64,000 nucleotides of DNA from an uncultured Gammaproteobacteria bacterium (GTDB taxonomy: Bacteria; Patescibacteriota; Patescibacteriia; UBA10025; JAHIVO01). Numbering within the stretch: position 1 is the stretch's first letter; every line of letters starts with the position of its first letter. Position numbers and translations under genes: made by a program. The stretch is taken from the NCBI GenBank assembly GCA_964592105.1, contig CAZQBL010000025.1:58-64057 (forward strand), in the 5' to 3' direction. Under the pieces are notes generated by a model. The model saw only the letters and a program-made list of their open reading frames with translations. It did not search any database and was not told the origin of the DNA. Positions 378 to 53,172 of the stretch are shown here, in pieces.

Positions 378-697
378 TAAAATCGGTTCGGATTTTTTCA
401 AATACACACCGCTTAGGCGGCAATTAAAATCATTGCTCTATCGCATGGCAGTCAACCCGTCTGCGTTTATTAAAAAAATGAAAATCATACGTGTATAAGA
501 CAAAGAAATAATTCCCGCCCCTCACGAGGATCCGCAGAATCCCGAGATTCTGAAAAAAATTCTACTCCAACGCGACGATCTGATTAACGCTTGGATCCAG
601 ATGATCAATTTGACCTACTTTAAAGTGGGAAAATTCTCCGACTGCACTATCATGAGGATATACAAAAAATTTTCATTATGCTGACTAGTAAGGCAAA

Positions 698-901
698 ATG
701 GTAATTGATGATGAAAAAGAAATTTTATACAAAGGCGATACGGACATTATCCCAGTTGGTATTAAACACGCTATGACAAATATTGGCCAGGAAGATGCGG
801 AATATCTGGCCATTGGCACGGCCAAAGGCAAGCTGAAAAAAAACAATCATCCACAAATAAAAACAACAAGCCGGCTCTACACTATCCCCTATTATCTATG
901 A
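698..901 (+). pseudogene. cupin-domain fragment (C-terminal cupin motif only); upstream part sits in another frame at ~521-694
   Basis: GDTDIIPVGIKHAMTNIGQEDAEYLAIG matches cupin motif 2 (GD..iP.g..H...N.g.e...fl.i). 67 aa is too short for a complete cupin barrel. A neighbouring frame (521-694) is open but its similarity to cupin motif 1 is weak. Confidence 0.3.
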
Positions 902-1141
902 CCTCCAATTCGGCAACGGAAGATCAAGTCCCCTTCTTTTTAATAATACGTAATCAAACATATAAAAGACCCGAGCATGCAATAACTTTGACCGCGTGGG
1001 CCATGATGGCCACCATGCTAAAAACAAGGAGTATCAACGCTTAAGTAGTCGCTGATCCGTTGATAATGATCGGATTAAATACTGGAAAAATTTTGACCAG
1101 GCGGTACAGCTTGAAGGCATCAAAAAATTAACAACTAAAAA

Positions 1142-1735
1142 ATGAAAAACACACAAATCAAAAGACAGGGCGATTCCATTCCCGCACAGGCCAGGCGTGT
1201 CTTCAAAGGAAAAATATTTGAGGTCTGGCAGTGGCCGCAGAAAATGTACGACGGCAGCACTCACATCTTTGAACGCCTGAAACGACCGGACACGGCTCAG
1301 ATTATCGCCGTAGTCGGCGATAAAATACTCATCCAGAGACAAAAACAGCCAGACAGAAAACGATCCTTCACCTCTTTGCCCGGCGGGCGCTGTGACGACA
1401 AAGAATCTCCATGGCTGACCGCCCGGCGGGAATTACTAGAAGAAACCGGCTACGAGTCAAACAACTGGCTCCTTTGGAAACAACACAAACCGGTAAGTAA
1501 AATCGAATGGACAATACACACTTTTATCGCTCGTGACTGCATTCTAACTGGAAAACCACGGCTGGACTCTGGAGAAAAAATAAAAAACAAATTGATCAGT
1601 TTTGTGGAATTTCTTAACTTAACTGAAGACAAAAGTTTCTACGACCCACAATTGGTCATTGTCCTGCTACGGGCTAGACATGATGCTCGCAAAAAGATTG
1701 AGCTCTATAATCTCCTCTTCAAAAAACATCAATAA
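1142..1735 (+). CDS. NUDIX hydrolase
   Basis: Nudix box GGRCDDKESPWLTARRELLEETGYES fits Gx5Ex7REUxEExGU. Confidence 0.8.
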   Translation: MKNTQIKRQGDSIPAQARRVFKGKIFEVWQWPQKMYDGSTHIFERLKRPDTAQIIAVVGDKILIQRQKQPDRKRSFTSLPGGRCDDKESPWLTARRELLEETGYESNNWLLWKQHKPVSKIEWTIHTFIARDCILTGKPRLDSGEKIKNKLISFVEFLNLTEDKSFYDPQLVIVLLRARHDARKKIELYNLLFKKHQ

Positions 1736-1752
1736 ATTGCTAAGCTGAAGAT

Positions 1753-2025
1753 ATGCGCTCTATTCTCCGATCAAAAATACATAAAGCCACTGTTACCAGG
1801 GCTGATTTGAATTACATAGGCAGCCTTACTATTGACCAAGACCTTATGGACAAGGCTGGTTTTTGATCGGGCGAAAAAGTCCTGGTGGTCAGCAATACCA
1901 GGGGCGCCAGACTGGAGACATATATTATCATCGGACCGAAAAATTCGGGAACAATTTGTATGAACGGAGCCGCTTCCCATATTATTAAAATCGATGAGGA
2001 AATTATTATTTGGGCTTTGAACTGA
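1753..2025 (+). pseudogene. panD: aspartate 1-decarboxylase (PanD) interrupted by an in-frame TGA at 1864-1866
   Basis: [89 protein letters not shown] aligns gap-free with E. coli and B. subtilis PanD, including the G-S self-cleavage site and GARLETYII/NGAA blocks. The single TGA replaces a conserved Leu/Ile codon. Confidence 0.75.
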
Positions 2026-2094
2026 CCGACAAACCGATAACCCCCAAAAATATTTTAGTCGATAAGAATAATAAATTCGTTAAATATCATAACT

Positions 2095-2652
2095 ATGAAA
2101 CAAACCTACCAAAACTTGCTCAAAGCCATTGCCGGTGAATCTTTGGCGCGCAATAAATACACCTTCTACGCCAAACAGGCACGGAAAGAAGGCTATGAAT
2201 GGATCGCCCGCGTTTTTGAAGAAACTGCTGAGAACGAACGGGCCCATGCCGAGGAAGAACTTGAAAAGCTACCCGAGCACGTGACCATGACCAACACTTA
2301 CGACATTCACCCGGTTGGTGACACCATGGCCAATCTCCTCCACGCCGCCGAGGGCGAAGAATACGAATTCGGCACCATGTATCCTGATTTTGCCAAAGTC
2401 GCCGATGAAGAAGGCGAAAAAGAAATTGCCCTGCTCTTCCGGAAAATCGCCGAAGCGGAAACCAAACATGCCGAGCGCTACCGGATACTTCTTGAAAAAG
2501 TGAAACAAGGCTCGCTCTACCAGAACGAAGAAGAGATCGAGTGGAAATGCGAAAACTGCGGTTATGTCCACAAAGGGAAATCCGCGCCGAGCAAATGCCC
2601 GCTTTGCCAAAAGCCGCAAGGCTGGTACCGGGGACTGGGAATTATACGATAA
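2095..2652 (+). CDS. rbr: rubrerythrin (ferritin-like diiron domain plus C-terminal rubredoxin-like CxxC..CxxC)
   Basis: ExxH diiron motifs (ENERAHAEEE, AEAETKHAERY) and C-terminal CENCGY...CPLCQ. Confidence 0.85.
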   Translation: MKQTYQNLLKAIAGESLARNKYTFYAKQARKEGYEWIARVFEETAENERAHAEEELEKLPEHVTMTNTYDIHPVGDTMANLLHAAEGEEYEFGTMYPDFAKVADEEGEKEIALLFRKIAEAETKHAERYRILLEKVKQGSLYQNEEEIEWKCENCGYVHKGKSAPSKCPLCQKPQGWYRGLGIIR

Positions 2653-2757
2653 ACTAAGAAACTTTATACGAACAAAACCTACTCTCTGATAAAAAATAAA
2701 GGGATAGTTGTTTCTAATCCACGAAAGTTCAAATCATCTCTCGACCAGATTGTTTCA

Positions 2758-3036
2758 GTGGGTCCGAAAAAATTACATATTCTGGCTGATTTTGACCGGA
2801 CACTGACTTGCGCTTACCCAAAACCGCTCGCCATCTTTAATTTATGCATAAAAATCTGCTCACTCCTGAACATTCTTAAAAGGCACGCCAACTTTTTAAT
2901 AAATATAATCGTCTGGAGATTTCACCACGACTTTCCATTACCATTAAGAAAAGGCTATAGGCGATGGTGGACAGAACATTTTCACCTGCTTAATGAATCG
3001 GGGCTTTCGAAGAAAGTCATCAAACAGTTGGAATAA
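2758..3036 (+). pseudogene. N-terminal fragment of a HAD-superfamily pyrimidine 5'-nucleotidase (UMPH-1-like), truncated at ~92 aa
   Basis: HAD motif I ILADFDRTLT (DxDxT). WWTEHFHLLNESGLSKKVI resembles the WW..H.LL..GL.K block of cytosolic 5'-nucleotidase III. Full-length proteins are ~290 aa; the ORF stops at 3036. Confidence 0.3.
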
Positions 3037-3134
3037 TCAATGATAAAATGCCCGAATCGCTCACATAACTTAGCGGTGCTACAATTACTTTAATAATTAA
3101 GCAAACGCGAACAATCCCCTCTTCAAACCCTCAT

Positions 3135-4010
3135 ATGAAAAACATGACTGCCAATTTAAAAAATGATCTCCTTAGAGCTCAAGAAAACGAAATCACTGAA
3201 CACTATATATACCAACGCCTGGCCAAACACACCAAGCATGAAGGTAATCGGGCCATACTGCAAGGAATCGCTGCTGACGAAAAAAAACACTACGAGTATT
3301 GGCGACAACATACCGGTCAGGATGTCCAGCCGAATCGTTGGCGTCTGTGTAAATACTACTTAATCGCTCAGATATTTGGCCTGACCTTCGGCGTTAAATT
3401 AATGGAGCAAGGCGAAAAACAGGCTCAAATTAATTACAAAGCTATTGCCACGGAATTACCCGAGGTCCTGGAAATAGAGAAAGATGAGGAAGCACACGAA
3501 AACAAACTGATAAATTTGATTAACGAAGAAAAGTTGGAATACATCGGCTCGGTTGTCCTGGGTCTGAATGACGCCCTGGTGGAACTAACCGGCGCTCTAG
3601 CCGGACTAACTTTGGCTTTGCAAAACAGCCGGCTAATTGCTATGGCCGGCCTGATTACTGGACTGGCCGCCTCGCTATCCATGGCTGTCTCCGAATACCT
3701 GTCCACTAAGACCGAAGGTGTCAAAAAAAACCCGCTCAAGGCCTCGCTTTACACCGGTACGGCCTATATTGGTACCGTCATTCTCCTCGTTTTGCCCTAC
3801 CTTTTAATATCCAACCTATATCTGGCCATGGGCGTGACCCTATTTTTGGCTATCTGCATCATTCTTGTTTTCACTTACTATTTAGCCGTGGCCAAGGACT
3901 TACCCTTTAAACGTCGGTTTGGGGAAATGGCCCTGTTAAGTCTGAGCGTGGCGGCAATTTCCTTTGGCATTGGCTTTGTGGTTAGATTAGCGTTTGGTAT
4001 CGAGGCGTAA
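3135..4010 (+). CDS. VIT1/CCC1-family iron/manganese transporter with N-terminal ferritin-like (rubrerythrin-like) domain
   Basis: N-terminal ferritin-like helices (EHYIYQRLA...DEKKHYEYW...EEAHENKL) followed by several TM helices with the G-rich VIT1 pattern (GLNDALVELTGALAGL...). Confidence 0.65.
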   Translation: MKNMTANLKNDLLRAQENEITEHYIYQRLAKHTKHEGNRAILQGIAADEKKHYEYWRQHTGQDVQPNRWRLCKYYLIAQIFGLTFGVKLMEQGEKQAQINYKAIATELPEVLEIEKDEEAHENKLINLINEEKLEYIGSVVLGLNDALVELTGALAGLTLALQNSRLIAMAGLITGLAASLSMAVSEYLSTKTEGVKKNPLKASLYTGTAYIGTVILLVLPYLLISNLYLAMGVTLFLAICIILVFTYYLAVAKDLPFKRRFGEMALLSLSVAAISFGIGFVVRLAFGIEA

Positions 4011-4221
4011 AAAATAATACTATAAAAAGTAGGCGTAAACAAAAAAATGAGGCCGATCCGCGAGTCATCAAGCAGGTCTGGGTAAAAAATAAAAAGGCTC
4101 AAAAAAAATTCGCCGGACCGACCTCTTGTACCAGCAGGCATCCATTGAATACATTGTGGGAGCAAAAAAGACTAAAGACCAAGCGACGACGAATCAAACA
4201 GATAATTGACAAACTAATTAA

Positions 4222-4596
4222 ATGACCAAGCAATATGAAATTGATACCCTGGCTGGCGAGTGTTTCTGGTGTACTGAGGACGTCTTTTTTGCCACGCACG
4301 ACCCGACCACTGTAAACCGACAGGGCAATGATGTCGGCCAACAATGCCGTTCGGCTGTTTTTTGTCATGATGAACAACAGCGCAAAATCACTGAGCAAAT
4401 TATGGCTCAGTTGGCTAAAGAAAAAATATTCGATAGCCCCATTGTTACTCAAATAGTCCCATCTACTGATTTTTTTCCGGCCGGAGGTTATCACCCGGAT
4501 TATTACGCCAATAACCCTGCCCAACCGTACTGTCAAACGATAATCAGCCCCAAAATTGCCAAACTTCGTCAAAAATTCCCCTCTTATCTTAAATAG
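4222..4596 (+). CDS. msrA: peptide-methionine (S)-S-oxide reductase MsrA homolog with an in-frame internal deletion (possibly non-functional)
   Basis: N-terminal active site AGECFWCTEDVF and C-terminal HDPT..NRQGNDVGQQ.RSAVF...PIVTQI...GYHPDYYANNP..YC match MsrA. About 55 residues between the two blocks are absent (124 aa against a typical ~170). Confidence 0.6.
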   Translation: MTKQYEIDTLAGECFWCTEDVFFATHDPTTVNRQGNDVGQQCRSAVFCHDEQQRKITEQIMAQLAKEKIFDSPIVTQIVPSTDFFPAGGYHPDYYANNPAQPYCQTIISPKIAKLRQKFPSYLK

Positions 4597-4806
4597 AGCG
4601 GTCTATAGACTTTTCGCCGGCAGCTATCTCTAACATCGGTTTTCTGGTCATCTGACTGTGTCTGGTTTTTGTTAACCGGCGCGAACAACCATCGTGCCTA
4701 TCCTTTATCGAACCCTTATCCGTGGCCGTGGGCGCTTTCTCGTTTATTGCCACCTCCATCCGACTCTCGTCGGCAAATGCGCAAATAGAAAAACTCACTA
4801 TTAAGA

Positions 4807-11551: not shown

Positions 11552-12586
11552 ATGATTGAAATAAGAAAAATTACCAAATTATCCATTATCTTTTGTCTAG
11601 CACTAGTTGTTTTGACAATGAACGCCGCGCCAGTCAAGGCTTATGAAGTTTATAAAAATGGTTTTACCATAATTCCCGAGGAATGCTTGGGCAATCAGGT
11701 GGCCACACAGCAAACCGAGCAGTGTGATATTAACTCCTTTGTCCAACTGTTCGTCAACCTAGCCGCCGTCGGCCTTAAAGTCCTGCCCTATCTGGCTATG
11801 CTCATGATCATCGGCTCGGGATTTTATTTTGTATTGTCTGGTGGCAGTGCTCAAAAAATCCAGCAAGGGAAAAAAGCTTTCACTTCGGTAGTCATCGGGG
11901 TTTTAATCGTCATCGTTTTGGCTTGGGGCTTGTCAGCCATGATTGTTTACTTACTGACCGGGGAAAAAGGCGGCTTTCTTTTTCCGGGATCGCCATTTTC
12001 AAAAGAATGGTGGGGCGGTGGAACCATTGAACAGCCAGGACCGGATACCCGATGCTGTTTTGTTCAAAACATTGGATGTAAAGAAAATATCACGGCTGAT
12101 GAGTGTGCGGCTATCGGGGGAAGACAGCTCGATGCCGGACAATCCTGTCAAAGCTATACAGCTTGTCAAACTTTGTCTAAACCCGGCTGCTGCGTACCCT
12201 CTAATGTTAATGATCCAAACTGTCATGGCCCTAACTCGACTGGATGTTTGGATTTCTCCGGTACTACCCATAACCCCAACCGGTGCCCACAGATAGGTCA
12301 GTGCATTTTTGGTGGCGTGGGCGACTTGGCTGCCTGGGGATGCTGCCTTAAAGACACTGGGGGCTGCGAAGAACTGGCTTTTTTTGAGTGCAATGGCAGT
12401 CACCGCGCTGGAGTAGATTGCAATACCCTGTCTGTTTGTACCGGTTTTTGCTGTAGGTTGCTAAATACTAAATGTCTGCAGGGCGTAACTTATGATTACT
12501 GTACTGCTCCGCCACCTTCCGGCCGTGGTGGTGCAATTCTCAATAAAGGCGCTTGTCCTTATTTCTGTCCACTGTCCACAAATTAA
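11552..12586 (+). CDS. TrbC/VirB2-like pilin domain fused to a C-terminal cysteine-rich (~24 Cys in ~190 aa) extracellular domain
   Basis: Signal/TM, then MLMIIGSGFYFVLSGGSAQKIQQGKKAFTSVVIGVLIVIVLAWGL (hydrophobic segment, GG, K-rich loop, second hydrophobic segment) parallels the two downstream pilin-like genes. The C-terminus carries repeated CC/CxxC patterns (CCFVQNIGC, GCCVP, WGCCLKDTGGC, FCCRLL). Confidence 0.5.
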   Translation: MIEIRKITKLSIIFCLALVVLTMNAAPVKAYEVYKNGFTIIPEECLGNQVATQQTEQCDINSFVQLFVNLAAVGLKVLPYLAMLMIIGSGFYFVLSGGSAQKIQQGKKAFTSVVIGVLIVIVLAWGLSAMIVYLLTGEKGGFLFPGSPFSKEWWGGGTIEQPGPDTRCCFVQNIGCKENITADECAAIGGRQLDAGQSCQSYTACQTLSKPGCCVPSNVNDPNCHGPNSTGCLDFSGTTHNPNRCPQIGQCIFGGVGDLAAWGCCLKDTGGCEELAFFECNGSHRAGVDCNTLSVCTGFCCRLLNTKCLQGVTYDYCTAPPPSGRGGAILNKGACPYFCPLSTN

Positions 12587-12598
12587 TATACTTTTCCT

Positions 12599-12970
12599 AT
12601 GAAACTAAAAAAATTATTTCCCCTCGCCTTGATCTTAATTGTCTCCGTGGTTTTGGGTTTGTCGCTGGCCTCATCGCCCTCGGTTTTAGCCGCTAGCAGT
12701 CCCCGTTTGCCAAATCCGCTGGGTGGCAACGCTGACCTCATGACTGTTTTATTGCGGGTGATGCAGGTTGCCCTGGCTCTGGTTGATATTTTTGCTCTGT
12801 TCATGTTTATCCTTGGGGGGTTTGAATTCCTTATTTCCGCCGGCAACCCCAACATGATTAACCGCGCCAAAGACACCCTGATTTGGGCCACCATTGGTAT
12901 TGTCGTCATTACCTTAAGCTACAGTATTCTAAAATTCATTTTCGAGGCTGTGCAAAAAGGTGCTTCCTGA
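12599..12970 (+). CDS. TrbC/VirB2-like pilin-family protein (paralog 2)
   Basis: Signal peptide (VLAASS), NPLGGNADLMTVLL, ILGGFEFLISAGNPNMINRAKDTLIWATIGIVVITL: two hydrophobic segments with a GG...K loop, as in T4SS pilins. Confidence 0.55.
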   Translation: MKLKKLFPLALILIVSVVLGLSLASSPSVLAASSPRLPNPLGGNADLMTVLLRVMQVALALVDIFALFMFILGGFEFLISAGNPNMINRAKDTLIWATIGIVVITLSYSILKFIFEAVQKGAS

Positions 12971-12975
12971 TTAAT

Positions 12976-13004
12976 TTGACAAATACTGCAGTTTGGTGTA
13001 CAAT
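12976..13004 (+). promoter_or_regulatory. consensus sigma70-type promoter (TTGACA, 17-bp spacer, TACAAT) for the 13053 pilin gene
   Basis: Seen directly: TTGACA 12976-12981, 17-nt spacer, TACAAT 12999-13004; SD AGGAAAGGGGGTG lies 7 nt before ATG 13053. Confidence 0.65.
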
Positions 13005-13052
13005 GACGACGTTAGTAAAAATTAAAGATTTTTAAGGAAAGGGGGTGAAACA

Positions 13053-13406
13053 ATGAAAATTTCAACAAAAGTAATGAGTGGCCTAATGATGGTTACCCTG
13101 TTAGCCCCTTTTGCCGCTTCAGCTTTAACTATTGAGACAGTTGGCAACACCATCGGTTTGGGTACGGCTGATCTGAAAGAAACCGTTATCAACATTATCC
13201 AGTGGGTTCTAGGCCTATTGGGCTTAATCGCCGTCATTATGATTTTGATCGGCGGCTTCCAATGGATGACAGCCGGTGGCAACGAAGAGAAAGTGGCCAG
13301 TGCCAAGAAAATAATTTCAGCTGCAGTTATCGGTTTAATCGTGGTCTTGCTGGCTTGGGCCATCGTAATCTTCGTCGTTCAGACAACCACTAATGTTACC
13401 ACCTAA
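13053..13406 (+). CDS. TrbC/VirB2-like pilin-family protein (paralog 3; monocistronic, likely highly expressed)
   Basis: Signal peptide FAASA|LT, IQWVLGLLGLIAVIMILIGGFQWMTAGGNEEKVASAKKIISAAVIGLIVVLLAWAIV. Flanked by a consensus promoter, strong SD and terminator. Confidence 0.6.
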   Translation: MKISTKVMSGLMMVTLLAPFAASALTIETVGNTIGLGTADLKETVINIIQWVLGLLGLIAVIMILIGGFQWMTAGGNEEKVASAKKIISAAVIGLIVVLLAWAIVIFVVQTTTNVTT

Positions 13407-31595: not shown

Positions 31596-32684
31596 ATGCC
31601 TGCCTCGCCCAGAATTCAAAAATTGATCAACGTTTCCAAGGAGGTCATCTGCGACTGCGCCTTGGAAAACGGAGCCATCGTAGCCGCCAATACCGACAAA
31701 CCATACTCGCCCAAAGAGGCTGGAGACTATCGGTTAGTCTGGATTAGAGATGCATCTTTTTGTTGCGTCGCCGCCGAACTGCTTAATTTACCTATTCAGG
31801 AGCCGTTTTTTCGATGGGTAGATGAACGCCCAGAGGATTTTGAGCGCGATAAACTGCTCTACTCAAATTACTCGACCAACGGCCGCATTGCGACCATGGG
31901 TAAGCAATTTCAAGCAGACCAGACCGGGACCCTACTCTGGGCAATTTTTATGCATTATAAAAAAAATTTAAAAGAGGCTCTCAAATTCAAAAATCTTATC
32001 GAACGCCTAGCCGATGGTCTCTGTGCCCACTGGGATGAAGATCATTTTTCCATCTCCACTACGGATCTATGGGAAGTGACAGAGCGACGAACATCGACCC
32101 GATTGAAAAATAACTTTACCTATTCGCTGGCTGCCTGCGCCCGCGGCTTGATTTGCGCTAATGACATGGTTTCTAATCATCTATGGAAAGAAACGGCTAT
32201 GCAGATGATTAAAAAAATAAACGATGCTTACGACAAAAACAAAAAATATTTTCTGCGAAATCAGGGCCGGATCGCCGATTTTAATGTGGACGCATCGTTG
32301 CTAGGGCTGGTTTACCCTTTTGAAATTTGCGAACCACTAGATGAACGAATCGCGAATACAGTCAAGATGATGGAAAAAACAATCGTCGAGAACGGCGGCG
32401 TTCACCGGTTTCAGTTCGATTATTTTGACAGCGAGGGCTCAGCTCAAGAAGGCGGGGGCGCCTGGCCAGTCTTGAACTGCTGGATGGCAATTTACTGGTC
32501 CTTGGCCGGAAACAAGACAAAAGCTCTGAAATACTTCGATTGGGTGGTCGAGCGCGCTCCGAAATTTAATTTTTTCCTGCCCGAACAATACTTTGCCGAC
32601 GATATACGCATCGGTATTTATCCACTTGCCTGGAGTCATGCCATGTTCATCATGGCTTGCCACTACCTCGGCTATTTAACCTAA
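31596..32684 (+). CDS. glycoside hydrolase family 15-like protein (glucoamylase/glucodextranase catalytic (alpha/alpha)6 domain)
   Basis: YRLVWIRDASF matches the GH15 Y.Y.W.RD motif; C-terminal W-rich helices (WPVLNCWMAIYW). Confidence 0.55.
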   Translation: MPASPRIQKLINVSKEVICDCALENGAIVAANTDKPYSPKEAGDYRLVWIRDASFCCVAAELLNLPIQEPFFRWVDERPEDFERDKLLYSNYSTNGRIATMGKQFQADQTGTLLWAIFMHYKKNLKEALKFKNLIERLADGLCAHWDEDHFSISTTDLWEVTERRTSTRLKNNFTYSLAACARGLICANDMVSNHLWKETAMQMIKKINDAYDKNKKYFLRNQGRIADFNVDASLLGLVYPFEICEPLDERIANTVKMMEKTIVENGGVHRFQFDYFDSEGSAQEGGGAWPVLNCWMAIYWSLAGNKTKALKYFDWVVERAPKFNFFLPEQYFADDIRIGIYPLAWSHAMFIMACHYLGYLT

Positions 32685-32688
32685 TCGT

Positions 32689-34152
32689 ATGCCACGAATA
32701 CTACGGATAGCCAGTATTTCATCCGAAGTCGCTCCCTATTCAAAAACTGGCGGCTTGGCTGACGTAGCTAAAGCTTTACCCAAAACTCTCTCCTCACGAG
32801 GACACGAAATAATCATTCTGACGCCGTTTTACAGTTTTATAAAAAAACAGGAGTTCAAATTCGAAAATGTAGTCACCACTTCTCAACTGGCCGTAACAGT
32901 GGGCAAAAGAGAGTTCCCTCTCTATTTTAAGCAGCTTGTCATCTCGACCAATTTAAAAGTTTACTTCGTCGGCAATGAGGAGTGTTTCGGCCGTCACTCC
33001 AAAATCTACGGCTACCCCGATGACAACCTGAGATTTATGGTATTTGATCTAGCCTGTCTCTCCTTCCTAGAATATCTCCAATTCAAACCAAACATAATCC
33101 ACTGCCATGACTGGCAAACCGGCTTAATACCCAATTTTCTTGCTTATCACCGCAACGCCTATCCCTCCTTGAATAAATCCGCCACGGTCTTTACTATCCA
33201 CAATCTAGCTCATCAATTGGGGACGGATTGGTGGATGATACCTAAAGATAAACGCGACAATGGCAAGGAACTGCCGCCGGTCGAAGACAATAAAATAAAT
33301 AATATAAATTTTACCAAAAGAGCAATTCTTCATTCGGATATTATAAATACAGTCAGTGAGCGCTATGCCCAAGAGATTACTACCCCAGAATACGGCCAAG
33401 AACTGGATAAATACCTTAAACACCGTCAGGACGACGTTTTTGGAATCATCAACGGCATTGATTATACCGTGAATAATCCGTCGTTTGATGTCAATATAAA
33501 ATACCGCTATGACTGGAACTCATTAAGACGGAAGAAAAAAAATAAATTGGAGCTGCAGAAAGAACTCGGACTGGAACAGAGCGAGGATATTCCGCTCATC
33601 GGTGTGGTCAACCGTTTAAGCGAACAAAAAGGCTTTAACCTTATCATGGAACTGATAGATGTTCTGATGCGGCTCCGTCTACAGATTGTCGTAGTCGGCA
33701 GCGGCAACAAAGATTATGTCAAATTCTTCAAAAAAACCGCCAAGAAACATCCCAAGAAAATCAGCATCTATACTCCTTTTAATGAACGAATGGAATCCTT
33801 GGTCTATGCCGGTTCAGACATGTTCTTAATGCCTTCGCGCTTCGAGCCCTGCGGCATTTCCCAATTAAAAAGCCTGCGTTACGGTTCTATCCCCATTGTT
33901 CACGAGACCGGCGGTCTTTCCGACACCATCACTGACTTCAATCCCAAAACTAGAAAAGGCAACGGCTTTGTCTTTAAAAAATTTACCCGAGAAGATTTTC
34001 TGATAGCGCTGTCACGCGCTCTGGAAACATATAAATACCCTCAGGTCTGGGAATTTCTAACCTGGAACAGCATGCGACAATCATATTCCTGGGAACTCCC
34101 GGCTAAAAAATATTTAAAACTATACGGCCTAGCCCTAAAGAAAAAACACTAA
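32689..34152 (+). CDS. glgA: glycogen (starch) synthase, GT5
   Basis: KTGGLADVAKALPKTL and C-terminal E..GISQL...YGSIPIVHETGGLSDT. Confidence 0.85.
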   Translation: MPRILRIASISSEVAPYSKTGGLADVAKALPKTLSSRGHEIIILTPFYSFIKKQEFKFENVVTTSQLAVTVGKREFPLYFKQLVISTNLKVYFVGNEECFGRHSKIYGYPDDNLRFMVFDLACLSFLEYLQFKPNIIHCHDWQTGLIPNFLAYHRNAYPSLNKSATVFTIHNLAHQLGTDWWMIPKDKRDNGKELPPVEDNKINNINFTKRAILHSDIINTVSERYAQEITTPEYGQELDKYLKHRQDDVFGIINGIDYTVNNPSFDVNIKYRYDWNSLRRKKKNKLELQKELGLEQSEDIPLIGVVNRLSEQKGFNLIMELIDVLMRLRLQIVVVGSGNKDYVKFFKKTAKKHPKKISIYTPFNERMESLVYAGSDMFLMPSRFEPCGISQLKSLRYGSIPIVHETGGLSDTITDFNPKTRKGNGFVFKKFTREDFLIALSRALETYKYPQVWEFLTWNSMRQSYSWELPAKKYLKLYGLALKKKH

Positions 34153-34156
34153 AAAA

Positions 34157-35377
34157 ATGATCTGGGCAAACTTCTTCCATATTTACCAGCCACCGCGCTG
34201 GCCAAAAACAATCATCGCCAAAGTAGCTCGACAAAGTTACCGGCCGTTTCTAAAAATTCTTGACCGTCACCCGGGTTTAAAAATTACCCTTAATATCTCC
34301 GGCTCACTCACTGAACAGCTGGCCAAAAATGGCTTTCTTGAAATCATAAAAAACATAAAAGCACTGGCCCATAAAAGGCAGATTGAACTTGTGGGCACTG
34401 CCTTATATCATCCGATATTACCACTCCTTCCAGCAAGTGAGATCATTAGACAGATTGAACGGAACACCCAGCTTAATAAAAAATTTTTCGGCCATCACTA
34501 CCAACCGCGTGGATTTTTTCCGCCAGAGATGTGCTACAGCAAGAAAGTGGGGGAAATCTTAGAAAAAATGAAATTTCAGTGGCTAATCCTTGACGAAATT
34601 TCCGCCAATGGTAAATTAGGAGAAATAAAATACGACCGCGCTTACCTAACCTCCAAAACGGGGCTGCAAATAGTCTTCCGCAACAGAATCATCAGCGATT
34701 ATCTTTCTTTTCATAGTGATCTCCGACGACCAAATAACTTTTGGTCGGCAGTCCGGCGCGATGGTCGCAGCAATAAAATATTAATTACCGCCATGGACGG
34801 TGAAAATCTCGGCCATCATCGTCCCGGACTTGACCGGCTGTGGGAAAAATTGGTAACGCACACGACGGTTCAGACCATGACCATCAGCGGATTACTGGCC
34901 CATTATCAAAAAGAAAAAATAATTCAACCAAGAGACGCCAGTTGGTCGTCGCGAGAGATTGAATTGCGCAAAAATAATCCATACGGCCTCTGGCACGATC
35001 CGACCAATCCTATTCACCACTGGCAATGGCAGCTGATTAACAAAGTAATTAAGCACCTCAATGCCAGCAAAAAGGGGAAACAGCACCATCGGGCCCGACG
35101 ACTGCTTGACCAACAACTGGCTTCGGATCAATTCTGGTGGGCTTCGGCCAAACCTTGGTGGAGTCTTGACATAATCGAAAAGAAAACCAACGAATTGGTG
35201 CACACTGCTTGCCTGGTTAATGGCGACCGCTCAATAAAGAAAATCGGAGAAAAAATCATTAAACTGGCCAGGGCCTGGCAGCGTGAACAAAAATTCCAGA
35301 CCATCGCTCGAAATTATCTGGCCGCGGAAGAACGTGATAATGTCCGCTTCATTGGAGGAAAAAAAATTAGTATTTGA
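34157..35377 (+). CDS. glycoside hydrolase family 57 protein (alpha-glucan branching/amylase-like), paralog 1
   Basis: GH57 blocks FHIYQPP (HxHxP-like), ELVGTALYHPILPLL, GFFPPEMCY (nucleophile Glu), AMDGENLGHH (acid/base Asp) align with Thermus GH57 branching enzyme. Confidence 0.6.
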   Translation: MIWANFFHIYQPPRWPKTIIAKVARQSYRPFLKILDRHPGLKITLNISGSLTEQLAKNGFLEIIKNIKALAHKRQIELVGTALYHPILPLLPASEIIRQIERNTQLNKKFFGHHYQPRGFFPPEMCYSKKVGEILEKMKFQWLILDEISANGKLGEIKYDRAYLTSKTGLQIVFRNRIISDYLSFHSDLRRPNNFWSAVRRDGRSNKILITAMDGENLGHHRPGLDRLWEKLVTHTTVQTMTISGLLAHYQKEKIIQPRDASWSSREIELRKNNPYGLWHDPTNPIHHWQWQLINKVIKHLNASKKGKQHHRARRLLDQQLASDQFWWASAKPWWSLDIIEKKTNELVHTACLVNGDRSIKKIGEKIIKLARAWQREQKFQTIARNYLAAEERDNVRFIGGKKISI

Positions 35378-35499
35378 TAAACCGCCACTAATTTATCATC
35401 ACTAATCTCACTAATACTTTATATCAACTAATGTAACTAGAATAATAAAATTAGTGAAATTCGTGAATTAAAATTCGTGGCCATAACACAAATAAAACT
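35378..35499. repeat. intergenic short direct repeats (CACTAAT x3; AATTCGTG x2) between the tandem GH57 genes
   Basis: Seen directly: ccactaatttatcatcactaatctcactaatac ... gaaattcgtgaattaaaattcgtggcc. Confidence 0.5.
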
Positions 35500-36882
35500 A
35501 TGATTTGGGCAAATTTCCTACACATTTATCAACCACCGACACAAAAAGAATTCTGGGTAAAAAAAATAGCCAACGAATGCTACCGCAAACTCACCAAGGG
35601 ACTAAAAGAAAATCCGCAGGCAAAAATAACCATGAACATCAACGCCGTATTGACCGAGTTGTTTGAAAAATGCGGCTGTCAGGATATCATTGCTGATATT
35701 AAATTTCTGGCCGAACGCGGACAGGTAGAGTTAACGGCCAGCGCCAAATACCACCCCTTTTTGCCGATGATGCCAAAAAATGAAATTATCAGACAAATAA
35801 AATTAAACACGGAAACCAACCAAAGGTTCTTTGGTAAAAAAGCCTATAATCCGCAAGGGTTTTTCCCGCCAGAAATGGCTTATAATCGCAAAGTTGGCGA
35901 AACCATAGCCCAACAGGGATATAAATGGTTGATTCTAGACGAACTAGCCTATTCAGGAAAAATGAAAGACATTGACTGGTCGCAAATATACACACTTAAG
36001 GGTATTGATAATTTTTTCATTTTCTTCAGGGAAAGGGAGGCCAGCTTCCGTATTCTCTCTGCAGAAATTGGCATGAGCGTATTTTCCGGAAGCATGCTAA
36101 TTAAATTGTTGGGTGATCGCATTAATAAAAATGAATATCTGATTACTGCTATGGATGGCGAAACATTCGGCCACCATCGGCCAGGGCTTGAGGATCTTTT
36201 ATTTGATATGTATAAGACAAAAGAATTAAAAGCTGTAACTATCTCGGAACTACCCGGGCTCTTCACTAAGAGGGTAGCCGTAGACCCTCGTCCTTCTTCC
36301 TGGGCGCTAATGAAAAAAGACATTGAGCGCAACACGCCATTCTCGCGCTGGAACGACAAAAATAATATTATTCAAAAAATGCAGTGGCGACTAACCAACC
36401 TAGCGCTTAAAACCATAAAATCAACAAAATCGAATACAAAAACATATACTAAAATCCGGCACGATCTTGACCGAGCCGTTCATTCTGACCAATACTGGTG
36501 GGCTTCGGCCATGCCCTGGTGGAGCATTGAAATGATTGAAGCTGGCGCAAAAGATTTATGCAATGTGGTACTTGAGTCCCCCGTGCCAAAAAAAGACAAG
36601 GAGCTGGCGAAAAAATTGTATCAAAAAATCCTTTATACGGCTTTTGATTGGCAACGTTCAGGTAAAGTGGATGCCATGGCCAAATCTGCCGACGAAGATG
36701 TGACCCAGCGTATCACTACCGAAATGCCCTATATCCCCGAGGAAGAATTCAATAAAATTGTAGGGAACCTAGAAAAACAGATGTTCGAGGCAGCCCAAGC
36801 CCAAGAATACGAACGCGCTGCCCAGATCCGCAATCGCGTCAACGAGCTGAAAGAAAAAAAAGATCAAATAACCAGAAAATGA
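35500..36882 (+). CDS. glycoside hydrolase family 57 protein, paralog 2, with C-terminal UVR (UvrB/UvrC-like) motif
   Basis: Same GH57 blocks (FLHIYQPP, ELTASAKYHPFLPMMP, GFFPPEMAY, AMDGETFGHH). C-terminus EEEFNKIVGNLEKQMFEAAQAQEYERAAQIRNRVNELK matches the UVR domain pattern. Confidence 0.6.
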   Translation: MIWANFLHIYQPPTQKEFWVKKIANECYRKLTKGLKENPQAKITMNINAVLTELFEKCGCQDIIADIKFLAERGQVELTASAKYHPFLPMMPKNEIIRQIKLNTETNQRFFGKKAYNPQGFFPPEMAYNRKVGETIAQQGYKWLILDELAYSGKMKDIDWSQIYTLKGIDNFFIFFREREASFRILSAEIGMSVFSGSMLIKLLGDRINKNEYLITAMDGETFGHHRPGLEDLLFDMYKTKELKAVTISELPGLFTKRVAVDPRPSSWALMKKDIERNTPFSRWNDKNNIIQKMQWRLTNLALKTIKSTKSNTKTYTKIRHDLDRAVHSDQYWWASAMPWWSIEMIEAGAKDLCNVVLESPVPKKDKELAKKLYQKILYTAFDWQRSGKVDAMAKSADEDVTQRITTEMPYIPEEEFNKIVGNLEKQMFEAAQAQEYERAAQIRNRVNELKEKKDQITRK

Positions 36883-50370: not shown

Positions 50371-51474
50371 TTATTGTTTTATGGGCATTATTATATAAAT
50401 ATAATTTCCATTTTTTTCCGGCCGTAATAATCCAGGGTTTACATTGCTGGTCATTTCCAAAACACATTGTTCACTGCTAATATTCTGAAGACCATCCAAA
50501 AGAAAACGGTAGTTCAGAACAATATTGTTCTCCTCTCCTACAATGTCTGCCGTCTGTCTGACTTCGCTCTCGCCGATCTGAGCATTGGTAGCAAAAACAA
50601 TTATCTCGCCCGTTTTTTTATCAAACTTCAAAGTAATATCATTGCCTCCCTGTTTACAAAAAAGGCTGGCCTGTTTTATGGTGTTAATAAACTCAGACGT
50701 GTTGACGATGACGCGCGTACGATGTTCGCTTGGTATGATCTGCTTATAATCAGGGTATTGCCCTTCAATTAATCTGGAAGTTAGCCTGGTCTCTCCCAGA
50801 GAAAACAAAACTTGGTTTTCGTTGCAAGAAATGACCGCCACTTCATTGGCCTCGTTCAAAACCCGAATAAGCTCTTGAATTGTTCTGAGAGGGACAATTA
50901 TCTGTTGGTTTTTTACAGCTGGTTTTTCCAGTTTTACTACTTTTTCAGCCAAACGATAGCTATCTGTGGCCGCCAAAGTAAGTTGTTCGTTATTAAAATC
51001 CATATATACTCCGCTAATCTCCGGCCTGGTCTCATCTAAGGCCACGGTAAAAACTACAGACGATAGGGCATCTTTCAGCGTCTTGGCTTTAATTTCAAAT
51101 TTTTCGGCGGCCTCAACATCGGGGATAATGGGGAATTCAGAAGCAGGGGCACCTTTCATAATTGTTTTGGATTTACTGCACGAAATTTTAAAATCTTGTC
51201 CAGAAACCTCCATGGTTATGTTTTGTTTGGGGAGCAGATTTATAAAATCGCTAAAGGTTTTAGCCTGAACAGTGTAGCTTCCTTCGGCTTCAATTTTGCC
51301 ACGTACTTGAGAAACTATACCGATTTCTAAATTGGTTGTAGCCAATTTTAGCATCCCCTTTTCCGCGGTTAATAAAACATTATTCAGAATTGGCAGAGAA
51401 ATGTTTTTGCTGGCAATGTGACTAACCATCTGAAGGCCACGTGATAAATTTTCTTGCGTACAAATAATTTTCAT
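50371..51474 (-). CDS. dnaN: DNA polymerase III subunit beta (sliding clamp)
   Basis: MKIICTQENLSRGLQMVSHIASKN...LPILNNVLL. Confidence 0.9.
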   Translation of the reverse strand: MKIICTQENLSRGLQMVSHIASKNISLPILNNVLLTAEKGMLKLATTNLEIGIVSQVRGKIEAEGSYTVQAKTFSDFINLLPKQNITMEVSGQDFKISCSKSKTIMKGAPASEFPIIPDVEAAEKFEIKAKTLKDALSSVVFTVALDETRPEISGVYMDFNNEQLTLAATDSYRLAEKVVKLEKPAVKNQQIIVPLRTIQELIRVLNEANEVAVISCNENQVLFSLGETRLTSRLIEGQYPDYKQIIPSEHRTRVIVNTSEFINTIKQASLFCKQGGNDITLKFDKKTGEIIVFATNAQIGESEVRQTADIVGEENNIVLNYRFLLDGLQNISSEQCVLEMTSNVNPGLLRPEKNGNYIYIIMPIKQ

Positions 51475-51795
51475 ATTTTTTTAATTTATATATAATATTA
51501 AGTTAAAGAATAAATATATAAGGAGGGTGGAAAAGTGGATAGATTTAAGAAAGTAGCTTTTTAGTTTGTTTTTAAAAATATTTTCTGGTGGACGTTTAAT
51601 TTTTTGATGTGAATATGTTCTTGGTTGATTGTGTCTGGTTTGGGCGTAACTTTCTAATCGGTGAACTAGGGTTATTTGATATGGTTTTTTTGTTCAGATC
51701 AACCAACAAGTTGTCAACAAAATAATTGTATTCGCTACACCAGTGCTCCACAGATTGATACGGCTTGCCCACAGGATATTAACAGCCCATAAGCC
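51475..51795. promoter_or_regulatory. putative oriC segment in the dnaA-dnaN intergenic region (AT-rich DUE plus DnaA-box-like 9-mers)
   Basis: AT-rich tract ttttttaatttatatataatattaagttaaagaataaatatata; DnaA-box-like AGTGGATAG, TTGTCAACA, gCTCCACAg; placement between dnaA and dnaN. Confidence 0.5.
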
Positions 51796-53172
51796 TTATT
51801 TATTGTAAAGCCTCTGGCGGATTAAGTTGATGTCCTGTCTGATTTTTTCGTCTTCATCGGCAAGGCGTTTAATTTTTTCGTAGGCGTGCATGGCCGTGGT
51901 GTGGTCTCGATTGCCAAGCTCATGGCCGATAGTAGGGTAAGAGCACTTTCCCTCCTCACGCATTAAATACATGGTTATTTGGCGAGGGATCACTAATTCT
52001 TTTTTTCGACTGTTGCCCAGCAGATCGTCAATTTTTATCTCAAAAAACGAAGCCACTTGTCCAATTATTTGTTTGACGGTTATGGCCCCGCCTCTTTTTT
52101 GGAAAGGGGAAACGCTGGTGAGTATGCTTTTTACGGAGTTAACATCAGGAGAAGTATTGTTGAGGTGGTGGAAGGCGATAATGCGATTAAGGGCTCCTTC
52201 AAGTTCACGGACGTTGCTTTGAATGGTGGTGGCCACCAAATTGATGACTTCCGTGGACAGGGGGTAGTTTTTTTCGGCACATTTTGCATTTAAGATAGCC
52301 ACTCTGGTTTCGAAGTCGGGTTGGGCGATATCGGCAAGCATTCCCCACTCAAAACGGGAAACAAGGCGGTTTTCTAGGGCGGGGATAGCCTTGGGAGGCC
52401 TATCGGAACTTATAACAATTTGTTTGTTGTGTTGGTGTAGGGCGTTGAAGGTGTGAAAAAATTCTTCCTGAGTTCCCTCTTTTCCAGCCAAAAATTGAAT
52501 GTCGTCAATCAGAAGGACGTCGGCGGTGCGGTAGGCGTCTTTGAACCTTTCTGCGTCGCCCTGGCTGATCGAACGGATGAATTCATTGGTGAATTTTTCG
52601 CAGGTAACATAAATTACTTTTTTTGAGGGGAATAGTTTGTGGACTTCTTGCCCGATGGCTTGCATGAGGTGGGTTTTTCCCAAACCAGCGCCGCCGTACA
52701 GAAATAGAGGATTGTAAACTTCGCCTGGTTTCTGGGCTACGGCCAAACAGGCGGCGTGAGCCAATTCATTACCTTTGCCGACGATGAATGTTTCAAAAGT
52801 ATAGCGGTTATTCAGACCGAAACCGTTTTTTTCGTTTTTCACAGTTGAGTTTTTGTTGTCGTGTTCCAAGACGACGCCCTCCTTCCCCCTCTCCTTCGGC
52901 GCTGAAATAGGCATCGTTTTGTGTAAGGATTCAACCTTGTAATTAACGACCGCAATTTGATTGTTGGATACGTTCTGAAGCGCCCTAAGAATTTCTTTGT
53001 GGTATTTGTTTTCCAGCCACGTTTTTGTAAAGGCATTGGGCACGCCAATAGTGACTTGGTTTTTTTCGTGTTGGGCGATAAAAGTATTTTTGAACCAAGT
53101 AGTAAAATTAGCCTTGCTGATAGACAGCTCAAGCTCACCTAGGGCCGCCTGCCATAATTGGGTGTTGTCCAT
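51796..53172 (-). CDS. dnaA: chromosomal replication initiator protein DnaA
   Basis: Walker A GGAGLGKTHL, AAA+ box, C-terminal DNA-binding helix (TTAMHAYEKI). Confidence 0.95.
   Translation of the reverse strand: MDNTQLWQAALGELELSISKANFTTWFKNTFIAQHEKNQVTIGVPNAFTKTWLENKYHKEILRALQNVSNNQIAVVNYKVESLHKTMPISAPKERGKEGVVLEHDNKNSTVKNEKNGFGLNNRYTFETFIVGKGNELAHAACLAVAQKPGEVYNPLFLYGGAGLGKTHLMQAIGQEVHKLFPSKKVIYVTCEKFTNEFIRSISQGDAERFKDAYRTADVLLIDDIQFLAGKEGTQEEFFHTFNALHQHNKQIVISSDRPPKAIPALENRLVSRFEWGMLADIAQPDFETRVAILNAKCAEKNYPLSTEVINLVATTIQSNVRELEGALNRIIAFHHLNNTSPDVNSVKSILTSVSPFQKRGGAITVKQIIGQVASFFEIKIDDLLGNSRKKELVIPRQITMYLMREEGKCSYPTIGHELGNRDHTTAMHAYEKIKRLADEDEKIRQDINLIRQRLYNK

Follow-up and report, generated by a model that had tools for sequence, protein, structure and literature searches.

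The panD gene near the start of the window (the whole 64,000-nucleotide stretch of DNA analysed here), which specifies a pyruvoyl-type aspartate 1-decarboxylase, is very probably a true pseudogene, functional in the ancestor shared with its sister lineage and inactivated here amid local reductive evolution. Three independent small mutations, a TGG to TGA change and two single-base deletions, would together have inactivated it; readthrough of the TGA would not rescue the gene, as the frame shifts at codon 87 and the natural stop is gone at codon 113. The features on which this reading rests, within panD and around it, are collected in Table 1.

Table 1. Features of panD and of the surrounding segment (positions in the window)
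Feature	Positions	Strand	Description and evidence
Cupin pseudogene	478..917	+	three 1-bp indels; the 128-aa cupin of the sister matches three frames (tblastn)
Deletion scars (two)	917..1121	+	~6.2 kb with seven sister genes gone (blastn, tblastn vs L083)
NUDIX hydrolase	1142..1735	+	197 aa, intact, upstream of panD; Pfam NUDIX
panD pseudogene (pyruvoyl-type aspartate 1-decarboxylase)	1753..2092	+	ancestral ATG to ancestral TAA; Pfam PF02261, sister alignment
Lesion 1	1864..1866	+	codon 38 TGG (Trp) to TGA, third-position G to A transition at 1866
Lesion 2	between 2010 and 2011	+	1-bp deletion, A of Met87 ATG; frameshift
Out-of-frame TGA	2023..2025	+	met after lesion 2; three-frame translation
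Lesion 3	2088..2092	+	codon 113 TTA (Leu) to C-A: substitution and 1-bp deletion after 2088
Rubrerythrin	2095..2652	+	185 aa, intact, downstream of panD; Pfam Rubrerythrin
UMPH-1 (pyrimidine 5'-nucleotidase family) pseudogene	2665..3134	+	at least 8 small indels and a ~494-bp deletion
OmdA remnant	4028..4222	+	5' 213 bp deleted, frameshifts; tblastn 34% identity over residues 71-135
msrA, internally deleted	4222..4596	+	175 aa in the sister vs 124 aa in the window, ORF open
Ceramidase-like remnant	4605..4748	+	first 48 of 199 codons (tblastn); synteny with the sister ends here

Identity and extent of panD

As the earlier note had described, the frame opened by the ATG at 1753 runs into an in-frame TGA, having encoded just 37 residues, and an uninterrupted PanD ORF of 113 aa is absent. 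The assignment to PanD made there also stands, far beyond chance: in the frame that the note had used, the sequence scores 117.3 bits against the Pfam profile PF02261 (cutoff 25), a score that rises to 127.6 bits for the frame-repaired version, and the repaired protein matches solved PanD structures, that of M. tuberculosis (2c45) with E=2.6e-25. The match in the unrepaired frame goes no further than profile position 89 of 115, and a switch of frame near position 2010 extends it to positions 3-114, so that after repair of the lesions the resemblance to the PanD family (PF02261; M. tuberculosis 2c45, E. coli 1ppy) is full-length. The conceptual translation is 88% identical to an intact protein of 113 aa (P0001), and the nucleotide sequence is 90.3% identical to the sister gene (contig L083, 8001-8342). 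The G23-S24 self-cleavage site is kept, and the residues K8, H10, G23, S24, R53, T56, Y57 and N71, which occupy invariant columns among the homologues, are all present, so that the Lys, His, Arg, Thr, Tyr and Asn and the Gly-Ser site of the family occur in the window panD as well. In PanD of E. coli the catalytic and processing residues are K9, H11, G24-S25, R54, T57, Y58 and N72.

The true extent of the gene differs from that proposed earlier. The best 120 homologues are about 113 aa long and end uniformly in ...KFVKYL*, whereas the ORF of the earlier note comprised 90 codons; its supposed terminal TGA at 2023 is out of frame, homologues run 23 residues beyond it, and the ancestral stop is the TAA at 2090-2092. 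Unlike its close relatives, all of 113 aa, the window panD has a frame that one nonsense codon and two deletions of 1 bp each have broken. It ends two bases before the start of the rubrerythrin gene, as does its counterpart in the sister. A tblastn search revealed no second copy of panD in the window, and a promoter and terminator scan of positions 1600-2200 gave nothing above the expectation from shuffled sequences, with no internal promoter-like site on the + strand.

The three lesions and their ancestral states

The reference for the lesions was provided by three intact sequences of the sister lineage, the JGI contig L083 and the short contigs L084 and L085, which were reached through exact look-ups of the flanking proteins and which share the gene order of the window and carry an intact PanD of 113 aa; conservation at the lesion codons was counted over 120 homologues. 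In the nucleotide alignment codon 38 is TGG in all three sister sequences, and the family has Trp at this position in 92 of 120 cases. The change was thus a G to A transition at 1866, and not a T to G transversion at 1865, so that the ancestral Leu or Ile and the TTA to TGA substitution envisaged in the earlier note do not hold.

Nor is the nonsense codon the only defect of an otherwise perfectly conserved gene, since two 1-bp deletions lie further downstream. At the first of them the sister reads ATTATTATTATGGGC and the window ATTATTATT-TGGGC; the affected codon 87 is Met in 118 of the 120 homologues, and the Pfam and tblastn matches resume in another frame from 2010, breaking exactly at the frameshift. 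At the second, the sister TAT TTA TAA is aligned with TATC-ATAA in the window, which puts the ancestral TAA out of frame; Leu occupies codon 113 in 117 of the homologues. The ancestral states Trp, Met and Leu at the three codons are thus held by 77-98% of the family. The two downstream frameshifts make readthrough of the TGA irrelevant, and the idea of a lone, possibly leaky nonsense codon was accordingly abandoned.

A closer relative that could order the lesions was sought in a scan of genome contigs, which gave nothing above 79% identity. The 90% cluster of the rubrerythrin leads to a locus of unrelated context that lacks panD (L090) and also to a contig from JGI whose 113-aa PanD is intact.

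A local decay zone and the age of the pseudogenes

When every gene of the sister contig was mapped onto the window (blastn and tblastn against L083), panD was found inside a local zone of decay. Orthology follows from synteny, as the order NUDIX-panD-rubrerythrin-UMPH1-VIT1 is the same in L083 and the flanks are 77-90% identical in nucleotide sequence. About 13 of the 16 ancestral genes of a ~14-kb ancestral segment have been removed or crippled, and intact coding sequence makes up 47% of positions 470-4800, compared with an ORF coverage of 86% window-wide. The genes lost at the two deletion scars comprise NUDIX172, HD, flavodoxin, a class-III aminotransferase, two methyltransferases and one unknown, of which two pieces are left, 38 bp of HD (964-1001) and the 35 codons that end the methyltransferase of 596 aa (1020-1121). 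A functional link between the deleted class-III aminotransferase and panD was considered and is not supported, as such a gene lies near panD in only one of 80 loci, at 34% identity.

The remaining casualties are of different kinds. The UMPH-1 remnant retains 53% amino acid identity to a sister gene of 299 aa. In msrA a clean in-frame deletion of 165 bp between two ...VF codon pairs has taken out 55 core codons, the catalytic motif GGCFWC has become GECFWC, and the Pfam PMSR match is confined to profile positions 69-153; judged from these changes, msrA is probably a cryptic pseudogene with an inactive product. Antisense to it lies an ORF of 157 aa that starts with TTG (4099-4572, - strand) and matches no family. 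It is almost certainly spurious, and a naive ORF-based estimate that counts it inflates the coding density of the decayed zone. The remnants of the cupin, UMPH-1, OmdA and ceramidase-like genes are at clearly different stages of decay, and pseudogenes of graded age thus surround panD.

NUDIX, rubrerythrin and VIT1 are intact, with pairwise dN/dS values against the sister of 0.05-0.135. The NUDIX protein is 89% identical to its orthologue (90.1% at the nucleotide level, dN/dS 0.135) and the rubrerythrin 80% (dN/dS 0.12). The corresponding dN/dS of panD, 0.18, is only slightly above those of its intact neighbours and, together with a nucleotide identity equal to that of NUDIX, indicates that most of the divergence predates the loss of constraint. 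Any sign of relaxed selection in these values is weak, and unusual residues are found on both branches: the translation contains three that are never seen in 119 homologues (E16R, I25L, S50R), and the intact sister is similar in this respect (C69R, M80 and others). From the dN/dS and the nucleotide identity we infer that the inactivation of panD was recent relative to the split from the sister and that panD is a young pseudogene; it was inactivated later than UMPH-1.

The rubrerythrin stands out among the retained genes: it is 77% identical in nucleotide sequence to its counterpart in the sister (L083, 8345-8902), with a dS of 1.18, whereas the flanking genes are 88-90% identical with dS of 0.31-0.64. 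A rubrerythrin with 89% amino acid identity is encoded in unrelated context in another Patescibacteria MAG (L090, 8001-8558; GCA_043798785.1). The gene may have undergone allelic replacement or horizontal transfer.

The loss of panD would be part of a local reductive episode, in which relaxed selection and a deletional bias removed most of the segment and NUDIX, rubrerythrin and VIT1 were kept. We infer relaxed selection as the cause, arising for example if beta-alanine or pantothenate were obtained from the community or from a host. In groundwater Parcubacteria MAGs, 5-10% of genes are reported to be pseudogenes, which has been read as ongoing streamlining (PMC11188291). The window panD resembles those cases in its small lesions, in the larger deletions of neighbouring genes and in the intact orthologues of a close relative; nothing essential differs, and only the local clustering of the damage next to a densely coding region is notable. 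In panD we therefore see an unremarkable and rather young pseudogene from an established enzyme family.

A more specific scenario goes further and takes the first ~5 kb as a recent burst of local gene loss in a hot-spring Patescibacterium, in which panD, a stand-alone and horizontally exchanged gene with some role beyond the canonical panBCD pathway, became dispensable. The segment would then show pseudogenes of graded age, with UMPH-1 as the oldest and panD and cupin as the youngest, interleaved with three retained genes related to oxidative stress and metals. We regard this scenario as unlikely, and keep to panD as a pseudogene produced by local reductive evolution in general.

Reality and fixation of the lesions

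The sequence was compared with two other assemblies of the same hot-spring mat community. One, IMG 3300022548 from JGI, combines three error-corrected Illumina datasets of the Cone Pool mat in a SPAdes co-assembly (PMC7490370); the other was made by Logan from SRR10519663. Contigs of the two assemblies span ~42 kb of the window and have different break points; each has one mismatch to the window, outside panD, and panD is identical in all. Since the assemblies probably have reads in common, or failing that come from one mat community, this agreement is independent of the assembler and not clearly independent of the sample.

It is conceivable that the population is polymorphic at panD, with a real pseudogene allele beside an intact one and the assemblies giving the majority variant. 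The apparent youth of the pseudogene (its identity to the sister and its dN/dS) would fit such a situation, and the single mismatches between assemblies testify to population heterogeneity. However, there was time enough for three lesions to accumulate on one haplotype, all the assemblies agree on panD, and among 5.8 billion protein clusters the identity of intact PanD proteins does not exceed 88%, which makes coexistence with an intact allele quite improbable. A 42-bp pattern laid over the TGA site with variable bases left open had no match in a collection of metagenome contigs from which this lineage is absent; even the known JGI contigs were not recovered.

The second possibility is that panD is intact in the organism and that the TGA and the indels are errors of sequencing or assembly, a source that the earlier note had proposed for the TGA. 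MAG contigs are prone to errors, and the site of lesion 3 is a short run of T in the sister (TATTTATAA). On the other hand, three separate lesions fall inside 230 bp, lesions 1 and 2 lie outside homopolymers, the SPAdes co-assembly and the Logan assembly yielded the same panD sequence, and losses of 165 bp, ~494 bp and ~6 kb in the adjacent genes are not the kind of change that such errors produce. The remainder of the window is cleanly coding. Error is therefore a very poor candidate, and, on the agreement of the assembled sequences, the TGA is taken to be a genuine mutation and no assembly artefact.

Genetic code and possible expression of the interrupted frame

Some lineages of Patescibacteria are known to recode TGA. 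Among the recoding tables, TGA stands for Trp in translation table 4 and for Gly in table 25, the latter used by Gracilibacteria and Absconditabacteria. This general background, and the fact that the TGA falls exactly where 77% of the homologues have Trp, would speak for reading codon 38 as a sense codon, either Trp (as in code 4) or Gly (code 25); what panD shares with such codes is a TGA inside the frame of a gene from Patescibacteria, at a place where Trp is conserved. Unlike in those codes, however, it is a single instance here. Under table 11, 53 non-overlapping long ORFs cover 86% of the window, and TGA terminates 12 of them, among them stop/start overlaps of the form ATGA (10152, 24071, 36879 and 54967) and one TGATAA (35375). 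The in-frame count suggested in the earlier note was run over the window and gave no TGA as against 284 TGG in the 17,569 codons of 47 long ORFs. The window therefore uses the standard genetic code, TGA is a true stop, as the note had maintained, and its recoding is ruled out there. Since, moreover, codon 38 is TGG in the sister and the two frameshifts would be fatal to panD under any code, a sense reading of codon 38 is extremely unlikely.

A negligible chance attaches likewise to active PanD still being made by readthrough combined with ribosomal frameshifting, or as split peptides: the Gly23-Ser24 site and the conserved catalytic residues remain encoded, and panD is flanked on either side by a gene of like orientation that looks expressed, but three separate recoding events would be needed within 113 codons, slippery-site logic is not evident, intact relatives need no recoding, most of the alpha chain is missing from the N-terminal product of 37 aa, and the scan described above revealed no internal promoter-like site on the + strand. 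Selenocysteine at codon 38 was dismissed, as the ancestral residue is Trp and not Cys and the frameshifts would persist.

The PanD subfamily and its gene neighbourhood

The earlier note had found a panD without panB and panC unexpected and had suggested a recent acquisition. The absence of those genes nearby is confirmed as far as the search reached, with no panB, panC or CoA genes within the window, yet a solitary panD proves to be the norm in this subfamily: among 150 immediate neighbours of panD in 80 genomes there are only three PanC and one archaeal phosphopantothenate synthetase (PPS_PS). Recent acquisition is not supported either, given that the sister has an intact orthologue, 90% identical in nucleotide sequence, at the same position between NUDIX and rubrerythrin, and that the GC content of panD (0.42) is close to that of the window (0.43). 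In a more distant Patescibacteria MAG (L006) panD also lies beside rubrerythrin and UMPH-1. A literature search on PanD in Patescibacteria found nothing.

The subfamily of 113-aa PanD proteins (loci L003-L082) is marked by the motif GFWPGEKV...KFVKYL and is 70-83% identical across MAGs labelled as Patescibacteria, DPANN archaea, Anaerolineales, Bacteroidota, Ignavibacteria and others. Two of the neighbours are the archaeal origin-associated protein OapC, and with the one archaeal PPS_PS they make some of the PanD loci look archaeal. The distribution hints at cross-domain exchange of the subfamily, with the caveat that the labels of MAGs are not reliable.

Annotation of the locus

The locus 1753-2092 should be annotated as a panD pseudogene, the 37-aa 'Asp_decarbox' gene called by pipelines being wrong, and the 124-aa 'PMSR' call (msrA) needs a flag for its internal deletion; neither beta-alanine synthesis nor MsrA activity should be credited to this MAG in metabolic reconstructions. 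The segment offers a clean, polarised set of lesions, from one transition and several 1-bp indels up to deletions of 165 bp, ~0.5 kb and ~6 kb, which illustrates ongoing deletional genome reduction in Patescibacteria. Beyond annotation hygiene its importance is small.

Other features of the window

Homologues of ValRS place the window in Patescibacteria, with Ca. Kerfeldbacteria as the nearest named group at ~62% identity; the ValRS of one further lineage (P0141, from Logan) is 90% identical. In addition to the genes discussed above, it encodes tsaD, tsaE, TyrRS, type-IV pilus genes, dnaA, dnaN and yidC. The dnaN and dnaA genes (50371-53172, - strand), with rnpA- and yidC-like genes nearby, coincide with the minimum of the cumulative GC skew, which turns at ~50-52 kb, and the window thus spans the chromosomal replication origin; the decay zone lies ~47-52 kb from dnaA. 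Two further groups of genes are apparently intact and typical of Patescibacteria, namely three tandem genes of the T4SS_pilin family (11552-13406, + strand) and a glycogen/starch cluster (31596-36882, + strand) that comprises GH15, GT5 and two GH57 genes.
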